Below, piece after piece: positions 6,277 through 8,390 of a DNA stretch of 64,000 nucleotides. A program made the translations under genes and the position numbers. The first letter of the stretch is position 1, and each line of letters opens with the position of its first letter. The notes below the pieces were generated by a model. The model was not told the origin of the DNA, searched no databases, and worked only from the letters and a program-made list of their open reading frames with translations. This DNA comes from Staphylococcus phage S6: sequence record LC680885.1. One strand, 5' to 3'.

Positions 6277-6912
6277 TTATTTAAAGTTTCTATAGAAATC
6301 ATCAAGTCCATTAAGAACAGATTCTTCTAAGAAAACTTTGATAGTTTTATTACTTTCTCTAATTGAAGCTAATTGAGAACCTTTATCATAACTGATATTA
6401 GATTCATCAACTCCAGCAAATCCCATATCTTCTGCAATGTATTTCACATTATCTGAATTTTCTTTAATATAAGTTAAAACTTCTCTAGGAGAGAATTCAG
6501 TAATTTTACCATTAGCAAACATATCAATTGATTCATTTACCATTTGTAAATCATTAGGATTATAGTTATTATGACCTTCTGAAATAATATTTTGAATATA
6601 AGAATCTTGATGAGATGGAATTACTACCCAATCATAACAAATTAATCTTAAAGGCTTAGTAACTTCAACTTCACCAGAAGGTGTTCTATTAATTTTACTG
6701 AAACCACGCATTGAGAAAGATACGTCAGATTTTTGTCCAATTAATCCTTTCATATCTTTACCAGCTGCAGTTTGAGCTGTTTCTACTTCTCCCATTAATT
6801 TATTACCATTCCACCAAGTTCTAGTAACAATATGAGAAATATTGCGTTGATCAATATACATTTGACGTTTAGGTTCATCACTTAAGGGATGTCCTGATTC
6901 CATTATCTTCAT
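6277..6912 (-). CDS. prohead protease, exon 2 (true exon probably begins near 6900 at GAA-TCA-GGA-CAT-CCC = ESGHP)
   Basis: No Shine-Dalgarno sequence precedes the ORF ATG and in-frame stops lie just upstream. ESGHP...SHIV..WWNGN..MG...SMRG resembles the His and Ser regions of T4 gp21-type prohead proteases (recollection, not a search). Confidence 0.6.
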   Translation of the reverse strand: MKIMESGHPLSDEPKRQMYIDQRNISHIVTRTWWNGNKLMGEVETAQTAAGKDMKGLIGQKSDVSFSMRGFSKINRTPSGEVEVTKPLRLICYDWVVIPSHQDSYIQNIISEGHNNYNPNDLQMVNESIDMFANGKITEFSPREVLTYIKENSDNVKYIAEDMGFAGVDESNISYDKGSQLASIRESNKTIKVFLEESVLNGLDDFYRNFK

Positions 6913-8071
6913 ATAAGTTCGTTAGACTTATACCGTCTTAAAAAGACTGCTCTATAATTTCTATAGAAGATGAGACCATATCAAAATCCTTTATAAGAAC
7001 AAAGGACCTCTCAAATTTCGATTTCACTTGAAATCTACTCCCTATAGGGATGGTCGTTGAACTATCCAATTAAAGTTAAATCTTTCTTTCTACAATTACA
7101 AATTTTTGTATTATGGAAGTCACACATATTGTATCTTTCATATTTTATGTCATTGAAGTTTCTTGTAGGTTTATAACAAATACAAAATTTGTATTGATTT
7201 TCTTTAGGTATTAAATAGAAATAGGGTCTAAGTAAATCTAAAAAATCTAGTATATCGTCAAATTTTTTCATACCAATATCTTTTATTTTTCCTTTTTCTC
7301 TCATGACTTTAAAATTTAAATTAAATTTTTCATTAACTTCTTTAACGAATTTTTCAATATCTTCATCTCTATATGAAGCTAAAGTTATTTTTAATCTTCT
7401 ACTTAAAGTTGGTTTTCTATTATTTGGTCTCTTTTGATAACCCACTGAAAGTGAGCCATCATCGATATACCAGTATAATAGAACTAAAGGATCAATAAAA
7501 TTTATTTCTGGTAATTTTCTAGAATTATCTTCATATCTTGATATTTCAATCATATTACGAATTAATTCTTTCTCTTTTGAGCTTATACTAAATCTTAAAG
7601 TATTAAAATGACCTTTTCTTATCTTATTAGTTTTGTAATGCTCACTAATAATATTGTATTTTCTATTTATATATTCTACTTCTTTTATGGACTCTTGAGT
7701 AAATCCTAGAGATGGATTAATATTATTTCCTCTCGGAGTTTCTATATGTCCATCACCAAGTAGACTTCCTAAAATAATAGAATTAACTTTTTCTTTTTCC
7801 ATATTAATCATTCCCTTAATTTTATAATTATTTGTTAAGGGTGTCCTAATTAATAGGTAAAAGAGGATAGCTGCTGATTATCCATTATTAACAGTACTTA
7901 GGACCTTATATTATTAAATGTATAAAAATAATAAAAGGCTTTTATTTCACCATATACCATCTTAACTATTGTTTCTACTTTTCAGTAACCATTAAGGTTA
8001 GTTAAGCTTTAGGAGTTCCCAGCAATTAAAGAGATTTCGACACTATATTACTATAGTGAAGGGCAAATTCT
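6901..8071 (-). mobile_element. group-I-type self-splicing intron (about 1.17 kb) carrying a homing endonuclease gene
   Basis: Two same-strand ORFs share one protease alignment across the gap. The downstream ORF lacks an RBS and the upstream ORF is truncated by a stop. A free-standing LAGLIDADG ORF sits between non-coding flanks of about 260 and 160 nt. The intron ends in G before GAA, and a U precedes the proposed 5' splice site. Confidence 0.55.
7062..7811 (-). CDS. LAGLIDADG homing endonuclease (249 aa)
   Basis: Two LAGLIDADG motifs are present: ILGSLLGDGHI and LLYWYIDDGSLSV. It is free-standing with its own start codon. Confidence 0.85.
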   Translation of the reverse strand: MINMEKEKVNSIILGSLLGDGHIETPRGNNINPSLGFTQESIKEVEYINRKYNIISEHYKTNKIRKGHFNTLRFSISSKEKELIRNMIEISRYEDNSRKLPEINFIDPLVLLYWYIDDGSLSVGYQKRPNNRKPTLSRRLKITLASYRDEDIEKFVKEVNEKFNLNFKVMREKGKIKDIGMKKFDDILDFLDLLRPYFYLIPKENQYKFCICYKPTRNFNDIKYERYNMCDFHNTKICNCRKKDLTLIG

Positions 8072-8290
8072 ACCATAAAAAGTTCTTCTTGCTAATTTTT
8101 CTTGTATTACTGGACTATCTAAACCACTTTGAATAACATCTTTACGATAAACACGACCATTACGGTTTTGTCTATCCGCTTCTTGTAACTCAGCAATGAA
8201 TCTAACCGATTTATTATTATCTTGAACCACTTCTGGTTGAGAAGTTGTATTAGATTCATTAATAAGATAAGCTTTTATATCTTTAGACAT
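8051..8290 (-). CDS. prohead protease, exon 1 (true exon probably ends near 8072 after ...RRTFYG)
   Basis: AAAGGAAG RBS. NGRVYRKDVI...GLD...RRTFYG resembles the gp21-type N-terminal region. The ORF runs into a stop 6 codons into the intron. Confidence 0.6.
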   Translation of the reverse strand: MSKDIKAYLINESNTTSQPEVVQDNNKSVRFIAELQEADRQNRNGRVYRKDVIQSGLDSPVIQEKLARRTFYGRICPSL

Positions 8291-8390
8291 TTATTTAACT
8301 TCCTTTCACATATTAAATTTAGAATATTTAAATGTTTGATAAGCAATTTTAACAATAGAATATTAACCTTAATGAAAATATGAATAGGAT

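Follow-up and report, generated by a model that had tools for sequence, protein, structure and literature searches.

What does a phage gene encode when it appears in the sequence as two fragments with a third reading frame lodged between them? The case considered here is the prohead (head maturation) protease gene of Staphylococcus phage S6 (record LC680885.1), of which a stretch of 64,000 nucleotides (nt), referred to below as the window, was analysed. S6 is a jumbo phage of the AR9/PBS1-like (uracil-DNA) group, and its genomic backbone is about 99% identical to those of phages DC4 and PALS_2. Gene callers would report this locus as two protease fragments and a stray endonuclease. We conclude that it very probably is a single protease gene of the Peptidase S77 family, T4 gp21 type, interrupted by a mobile group I intron, and that the actual product, given the predicted splicing, would be one protease of 280 amino acids (aa). 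All features of the gene are on the minus strand; their coordinates are collected in Table 1, and a caret marks splice and insertion sites throughout.

The interrupted prohead protease gene

The upstream open reading frame (ORF; 8290..8051) has a good ribosome-binding site (RBS), AAAGGAAG, continues for six codons (RICPSL) beyond ...ARRTFYG and ends at a TAG. The downstream ORF (6912..6277) has no Shine-Dalgarno sequence and is immediately preceded by in-frame TAA codons. Between the two lies a 249-codon ORF (7811..7062), with non-coding sequence of 260 nt (8071..7812) on its upstream side and of 161 nt (7061..6901) on its downstream side. This is the layout described in a first-pass annotation made from the letters alone: two same-strand protease ORFs with an endonuclease ORF in a gap of about 1.17 kb, non-coding flanks of roughly 260 and 160 nt, a good RBS and an early stop for the upstream ORF, and no Shine-Dalgarno sequence and in-frame stops for the downstream one. 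Every item is present in the sequence, and the interruption measures exactly 1,171 nt.

Over its full length the region is 95.6% identical to that of the Staphylococcus jumbo phage MarsHill, and its flanks are about 99% identical to PALS_2 and DC4, both of which are without the 1.17-kb insert. The bounds of the intron, 8071..6901, were mapped by nucleotide alignment to the intron-less PALS_2 allele. They leave U8072 as the last base of the 5' exon and G6901 (omega-G) as the last base of the intron, in keeping with the earlier proposal that the 5' splice site follows a U and the 3' site a G. Junctions shifted by one base were also considered; one of them keeps the protein, but the U/G rule is broken. 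Joining the exons at GGU^GAA (8072/6900), as had been suggested, gives a continuous 280-aa protein that is 100% identical to the product of the uninterrupted PALS_2 gene, 99.6% identical to that of DC4 and 97.5% identical to that of SA1. Because the spliced product equals that of an uninterrupted gene over all 280 residues, the arrangement is not due to chance.

The joined protein matches Pfam Peptidase_S77 (PF03420) over residues 37-178 (E 3.4e-9, 36.9 bits, cutoff 27), a match that runs across the junction at residues 73/74. The resemblance of the joined protein to gp21-type proteases that the first-pass annotation had put forward is thus borne out by a profile search, above the cutoff. The families phrog_207 and phrog_3014 (head maturation protease) also match the joined protein (E 4e-24 and 4e-23), and a weak pairwise match to T4 gp21 (PDB 5jbl, E 0.018) aligns GESGHP with GELNAP and SMRG with ASRG. 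The corresponding position in the GELNAP segment of the crystallised 5jbl chain is, we presume, a His in wild-type gp21 and the catalytic one. The insertion therefore separates codons 73 and 74 and immediately precedes the GE(S)GHP motif with the presumed catalytic-His codon.

The predicted group I ribozyme

All four classical elements of a group I intron were found by inspection: P (UUAAUUGCUGGG), Q (AAUCAGCAGC), R (GUUCAACGACCA) and S (GAUAUGGUC). Helices P1, P2, P3, P4, P5, P6, P7, P7.1, P7.2, P8, P9, P9.1, P9.2 and P10 can all be drawn in the S6 intron, and the same helices can be drawn, with different sequences, in the AR9, BpSp and LPJP1 rpoB introns. The presence of P7.1 and P7.2 is taken by us to point to subgroup IA. 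P6 (GCUAUCC/GGAUAGU) closes the loop that bears the ORF, and the UAG stop codon of the ORF (7064-7062) lies inside the 3' strand of this helix. The U(-1)•G guide pairing, omega-G and P10 are all present in S6 and recur in AR9 and LPJP1; in the S6 P10 the exon-2 bases GAAU (6900-6897) pair with AUUU (8068-8065) of the intron. By blastn, the 5' half of the ribozyme resembles the rpoB intron of LPJP1 and features annotated as Intron_gpI. A group I core, the lack of which the first-pass annotation had named among the things that would refute it, can thus be drawn from P1 to P9.2 and P10 and is backed by comparison with related introns.

This comparison was made on a MAFFT alignment of five introns. 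RNAalifold recovers ten helices from it (P1, P2, P4, P5, P6, P7, P7.2, P9, P9.1 and P9.2). Over the ten helices in register, 96% of the alignment cells are paired and 26 of the 56 base pairs have changes on both sides. None of 500 shuffles reached values as high as 96% or 26 pairs, and slid controls gave at most 5. P3, P8 and P10 were checked sequence by sequence rather than by columns, since MAFFT had placed relatives one column out of register. In the 3' half, compensatory changes are found in P7, P7.2, P8, P9, P9.1 and P9.2; one of them is specific to S6, in which P7 reads GACCAU/AUGGUC, with a C-G pair, versus GACUAU/AUAGUC, with U-A, in the relatives.

In the splicing reaction that this fold predicts, the pre-mRNA would form a group I ribozyme in which the exon end GGU pairs with the internal guide GCC to give P1, the 5' splice site being marked by a U•G wobble. 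Attack after U8072 would come from an external guanosine, the 3' exon would be aligned by P10, and ligation after omega-G6901 would restore ...FYG-ESGHP....

Several points weigh against this reading of the locus. Splicing of the S6 protease pre-mRNA is itself a prediction from sequence, and the exon junctions of MarsHill too were predicted by alignment. P1 has just 3 base pairs in its exon part. The covariation alignment consists of five sequences, two of them nearly identical. A tentative P9.0 pairing (AUCUUC 6971-6966 with GAAGAU 6910-6905) acquires a mismatch when read in the MarsHill sequence and is missing from AR9; it is not claimed here. The Rfam model RF00028 (Intron_gpI, gathering threshold 50 bits) finds no match in the whole region (6700-8300, E <= 10) or in the 5' half alone, and the whole window gives no match to Rfam at the gathering threshold. 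The 3' half alone gives a truncated Intron_gpI match that aligns the R element, the 3' strand of P3, P8, the S element and P9, with a score (17.4 bits, E 0.017) under the gathering threshold. The covariance-model check proposed in the first-pass annotation therefore gives a truncated match below the threshold for the 3' half, and none for the region as a whole or for the 5' half.

The failure of the model on the whole region is most likely explained by the insertion of about 800 nt in P6. The AR9 protease intron, which has no ORF, scores 66 bits (E 1e-16) on RF00028, and the S6 3' half is 70% identical to it. The loci of MarsHill and Madawaska gave no Rfam match when searched whole either; matches came only from short stretches. 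When the window was scanned for additional copies of the core motifs P, Q, R and S, no other intron of the S6 protease type came to light.

The endonuclease, its putative target site and competing explanations

The ORF in the P6 loop encodes a LAGLIDADG protein with two motifs, ILGSLLGDG and LLYWYIDDG, whose catalytic Asp residues (GDG and DDG) do not vary across the 12 members of the protein's family. It matches Pfam LAGLIDADG_2 (PF03161) with E 2.1e-19 and 70.5 bits (cutoff 25), and I-SceI in the PDB with E 2.4e-6 over the second domain, and the double-motif identity assigned on first inspection is thereby confirmed. The gene had been placed at 7062-7811. Such an ORF is found there, but the most likely start codon is the second ATG, 7802, for a protein of 246 aa, because it lies 10 nt from the AAGGG Shine-Dalgarno sequence (1 nt for the ATG at 7811) and is the annotated start in MarsHill. 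The MarsHill protein (QQM14598) is 93% identical, with 34 synonymous and 16 non-synonymous codon changes, the latter giving 16 amino-acid changes, which suggests purifying selection on the endonuclease. Like I-SceI, the enzyme appears to be monomeric with two motifs and belongs to LAGLIDADG_2; unlike it, I-SceI comes from a yeast mitochondrial intron in the large-subunit (LSU) rRNA.

Among 5.8 billion proteins this endonuclease family forms 11 clusters; all members that were looked at in their genomic context are located within introns of prohead protease genes. The enzymes of phage group I introns are mostly of the GIY-YIG, HNH, PD-(D/E)xK or EDxHD types (PMC3984707), and the remark in the first-pass annotation that a LAGLIDADG enzyme is uncommon in such a place agrees with this review. 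The S6 intron would then be a fairly rare instance of a LAGLIDADG enzyme in a phage intron. As a separate observation, the C-terminal 40 or so residues (7062..7190, minus strand) contain a Cys cluster (FCICY ... MCDFH ... ICNCR; C-x-C ... C ... C-x-C), which is conserved across the 12-member family and absent from I-SceI, and which may be a zinc-binding tail.

Occupancy of the site was compared in ten Staphylococcus jumbo phages, S6 included. Three of them (PALS_2, DC4 and SA1) are without an intron, two (MarsHill and S6) have the S6-type intron, and the remaining five (Madawaska, Machias, PB50, LY01 and AH12) have a different group I intron of 154-164 nt that starts 4 nt downstream. In AR9, BpSp and the metagenomic sequences L016/L017 and L020, the S6 ribozyme lineage is found 9 nt downstream (GEAG^HP), and in L016/L017 and L020 this intron is accompanied by a LAGLIDADG gene of the S6 endonuclease family. 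Three intron sites (0, +4 and +9) thus lie within 9 nt at the catalytic-His motif. The 0 and +9 sites (FYG^ExGHP and GEAG^HP) each follow a GGU Gly codon and are read by the same GCC guide.

The same spot is marked in the exons. The DC4 and PALS_2 genes, 843 nt long, have 17 differences, 7 of which fall in nt 216-228 of the coding sequence (CDS), a stretch of 13 nt round the site; all seven are synonymous. The intron-less site reads TAT GGT^GAG AGT GGC/T in PALS_2 and SA1 (target sequence TTTTATGGT^GAGAGTGG, also written TTTTATGGT^GAGAGTGGCCATCC) and TAC GGG^GAA TCA GGA in DC4 (target sequence TTTTACGGG^GAATCAGGACATCC); in S6 the exons read TAT GGT^GAA TCA GGA across the insertion point. DC4 (L022:310-330) shares the 3' flank GAA TCA GGA with the intron-bearing S6, and has two private synonymous changes, at -4 and -1 (TAC GGG), by which the U needed at a group I 5' splice site is removed. 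The DC4 site could be a cleavage-resistant allele or the outcome of precise intron loss. A short co-conversion tract from a MarsHill-like donor was our first reading of the patch; it is weakened by the shared 3' flank of the intron-less DC4, and we keep the patch only as a hotspot of synonymous variation. The clustering is the pattern expected from repeated intron gain and loss, co-conversion and cleavage escape, causes that are not separable here.

Endonuclease activity and homing are, for S6, predictions of the following kind. The two-motif enzyme encoded in the P6 loop would, in a mixed infection, cut the intron-less allele near the insertion site, and repair from the intron-containing genome would copy the intron in.

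Explanations other than a mobile group I intron have to be weighed against these data. A free-standing endonuclease gene might split the protease gene so that its halves are translated separately and assemble without RNA splicing, as has been described for nrdA of the Aeromonas phage Aeh1. The downstream ORF does begin with an ATG four codons upstream of ESGHP, and the failure of Rfam to recognise the whole region would fit; this ATG (6912), however, has no Shine-Dalgarno sequence and lies within helix P9.2, the break would fall within the catalytic-His motif, the endonuclease ORF has a full group I core, supported by covariation, on its two sides, and the ORF-less AR9 version of the intron has the Rfam score given above. 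We consider such a gene in pieces most unlikely. An intein or a group II intron is effectively refuted by the sequence. LAGLIDADG-bearing inteins do occur in these phages, Korn et al. giving MarsHill gyrase A as an example, and both AR9 and LPJP1 are reported to have group II introns. In S6, reading on from exon 1 meets a stop after six codons; the ORF is in another frame than the exons, with a start and a stop of its own and stop codons on either side; and the region contains group I elements, with neither a reverse transcriptase nor a match to group II RNA.

The possibility that the intron has decayed, so that the ribozyme no longer splices and the protease is a pseudogene, or that the interruption is an assembly artefact, appears highly unlikely to us. 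It could appeal to the short exon part of P1 and to the fact that splicing is read from the sequence. A protease of the gp21 type is required for head maturation in this type of phage, as established for T4 gp21, and the same intron is present in MarsHill, a plaque-forming isolate; moreover, every helix is intact, and the ribozyme halves of MarsHill and S6 are better conserved (about 97% identical) than the ORF (92%). The LAGLIDADG protein might instead be mainly a maturase, an RNA-folding helper, or an inactive nuclease, with the intron inherited vertically rather than by homing. LAGLIDADG maturases exist, one bacterial enzyme among them (PMC3984707), and the S6 ribozyme is very AT-rich, with a GC content of 28-33% in its core. 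We regard this explanation as improbable: the catalytic Asp residues are invariant across the family, the intron is patchily distributed among phages that are 99% identical, and synonymous variation is clustered at the insertion site, all of which point to mobility at the DNA level. Maturase and homing roles are not mutually exclusive. The reading of the locus as a protease gene carrying a mobile group I intron, which was that of the first-pass annotation, is thus supported by the homology across the junction, the core, the endonuclease family and the U/G rule together.

Proposed control of the endonuclease, known counterparts and further introns

A predicted hairpin precedes the endonuclease gene. 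Its arms are CCCUUAA (7841-7835) and UUAAGGG (7819-7813), the 3' arm contains the endonuclease Shine-Dalgarno sequence, and the loop contains AACAAATAATTA, which matches the late-promoter consensus of AR9, A(-11)ACA-6N-U-A/G(+1) (PMC7598289). The hairpin and an exact AACA-N6-TR occur at the same distance from the start codon in seven of eight endonuclease-bearing relatives, whose endonucleases are 51-93% identical. On both strands of the window AACA-N6-T-A/G is depleted (74 copies, versus 119 ± 10 in dinucleotide-preserving shuffles), which fits a functional signal. One AACA-N6-TA copy (8336..8325) precedes the protease start codon by 35 nt.

From these predicted elements we infer, more speculatively than for the intron itself, that the hairpin would sequester the Shine-Dalgarno sequence, so that translation of the endonuclease from the pre-mRNA would probably be held down, and that a late promoter within the loop would give a transcript from 7825 that is without the 5' arm and could be translated. 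Two points tell against this part of the proposal: the promoter motif is short, and the protease gene probably has a late promoter of its own, which makes the temporal role of the hairpin less obvious than in T4.

In T4, expression of I-TevI is uncoupled from that of its host gene by an RBS-sequestering hairpin and a late promoter. The S6 layout resembles this control, with a putative promoter that would be of the uracil-dependent AR9 type. The td intron of T4 is, like that of S6, an IA-type phage group I intron with its endonuclease ORF looped out of P6; I-TevI itself is of the GIY-YIG type and cleaves at a distance from the insertion site, and td belongs to early nucleotide metabolism. It is our tentative proposal, held with somewhat less than even confidence, that an I-TevI-like control of the endonuclease has been rebuilt in S6 with jumbo-phage parts, and jointly that the ribozyme/endonuclease lineage has switched between the 0 and +9 sites. 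The latter would be a natural relocation of the intron, for example via reverse splicing or retargeting of the endonuclease.

As an annotation the S6 element is already known. It is the orthologue of an element in MarsHill, of a well-known kind and no new class. The MarsHill record (GenBank MW248466) gives the CDS in two pieces, under the name "prohead core scaffold and protease", and places a LAGLIDADG homing endonuclease between them; Korn et al. (bioRxiv 10.1101/2020.12.14.422802) report that these phages and AR9 have introns in the prohead scaffold/protease gene, and the accessible text contains no description of the RNA structure, exact splice rules or regulation of the MarsHill element. 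The MarsHill gene 065 intron with gp064 is in the same gene, at the same insertion site (FYG^ESGHP) and of the same architecture as that of S6; the introns are 94% identical in nucleotide sequence. The exons of S6, in contrast, belong to the DC4/PALS_2 type: MarsHill differs from them by 28 changes, DC4 and PALS_2 by 8-9, and sequenced phages of this exon type lack the intron, unlike S6. The AR9 (g114) and BpSp introns share with S6 the gene, the ribozyme lineage, P7.1/P7.2, P9.1/P9.2 and the GCC guide with a GGU Gly codon. They differ from it in that the AR9 intron, at its more downstream site, has no endonuclease ORF, whereas BpSp has in its P6 loop an ORF, gp190 (L009:2345-2716), that is annotated on the opposite strand and is not LAGLIDADG. 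What the present comparison would add to the existing annotation is the three-site hotspot, the proposed site shift and the putative hairpin/promoter design, together with the synonymous patch and an endonuclease lineage apparently confined to the protease gene. The S6 intron is a further case of selfish introns that target an essential phage gene at its most conserved codons, and the pairing of S6 with DC4 and PALS_2, about 99% identical phages with and without the intron, would offer a clean system for homing and target-site escape in uracil-DNA jumbo phages.

Table 1. Features of the S6 protease locus, in window coordinates and in the order of transcription
Feature	Coordinates	Strand	Basis
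Candidate AR9-type late promoter AACA-N6-TA, AACATTTAAATA, upstream of protease gene; predicted start 8325	8325..8336	-	consensus match
RBS of exon 1 ORF, AAAGGAAG	8306..8299	-	
Exon 1, codons 1-73, ends ...RRTFYG (GGU)	8072..8290	-	protein 100% identical to PALS_2 residues 1-73
Homing-site patch of synonymous variation	8075..8072 (CDS nt 216-219) and 6892..6900 (CDS nt 220-228)	-	DC4-PALS_2 differences
Predicted group I intron of 1,171 nt, IA-like by its P7.1/P7.2, ORF in P6 loop	6901..8071	-	PALS_2 alignment and U(-1)/omega-G rule
5' ribozyme half	7865..8071	-	helix table, covariation in P2 and P6
P1, GGU^AG / UUGCC, with U8072•G8064	8074-8070 with 8066-8062	-	
P10 guide AUUU	8068-8065	-	
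P2	8058-8052 / 8047-8041	-	
P3, 5' strand	8034-8029	-	
P4, 5' strand (P element)	8024-8019	-	
P5, with extension of ~130 nt	8014-8012 / 7883-7881	-	
P4, 3' strand (Q element)	7877-7872	-	
P6, 5' strand	7871-7865	-	
Predicted hairpin CCCUUAA (15-nt loop) UUAAGGG; loop motif 7836..7825, predicted late start 7825	7813..7841	-	RNAfold, 60 nt upstream of start codon
LAGLIDADG homing endonuclease gene, 246 aa	7062..7802 (longest ORF from 7811)	-	Pfam, PDB, MarsHill homologue
3' ribozyme half	6901..7067	-	Rfam partial match, AR9 identity, compensatory changes
P6, 3' strand	7067-7061	-	
P7, 5' strand (R element)	7055-7050	-	
P7.1	7049-7040	-	
P7.2	7035-7020	-	
P3, 3' strand	7012-7007	-	
P8	7006-6987	-	
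P7, 3' strand (S element)	6979-6974	-	
P9	6967-6951	-	
P9.1	6947-6935	-	
P9.2	6933-6911	-	
omega-G	6901	-	
Exon 2, codons 74-280 and stop, begins ESGHP	6277..6900	-	ORF and homology

Some further introns were noticed in the related phages. The mini-introns at the +4 site (L003:2422-2576 in Madawaska, L004:2421-2584, L005:2421-2574, L006:2424-2577 and L007:2418-2571) are 154-164 nt long, with P1 GUGAGU/GCUCAC and no P2. Four of the five have no P8 hairpin; at its position there is an 8-nt sequence, AACCUAGA, complementary to intron nt 1-8, UUUAGGUU. Rfam matches this intron only when a 190-nt stretch is searched alone, with 37.5 bits, below the gathering threshold and with P8 deleted. By the U(-1)/omega-G rule its junction is GAGU^CAGG, which gives ESGHP, whereas the annotated Madawaska product apparently has EAGHP. 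In the same five phages a second intervening sequence of about 150-370 nt (L003:2843-2993 and counterparts in L004-L007) is located near codon 163 (...ICYD^WVVIPSH); it showed up as a third tblastn piece.

At the S6 site itself, the metagenomic L019:3317-3400 has an intron for which both the reading frame (FYG^EAGHP) and P10 (GAAG/CUUU) need an A, not a G, as the last intron base (...GUUAUA^GAAGCU). In the RNA polymerase beta region of BpSp (L012:900-2300), four sets of R (GTTCAACGAC) and S (GATATAGTC) motifs occur within about 1.4 kb, suggesting that several group I introns of one family follow each other there.

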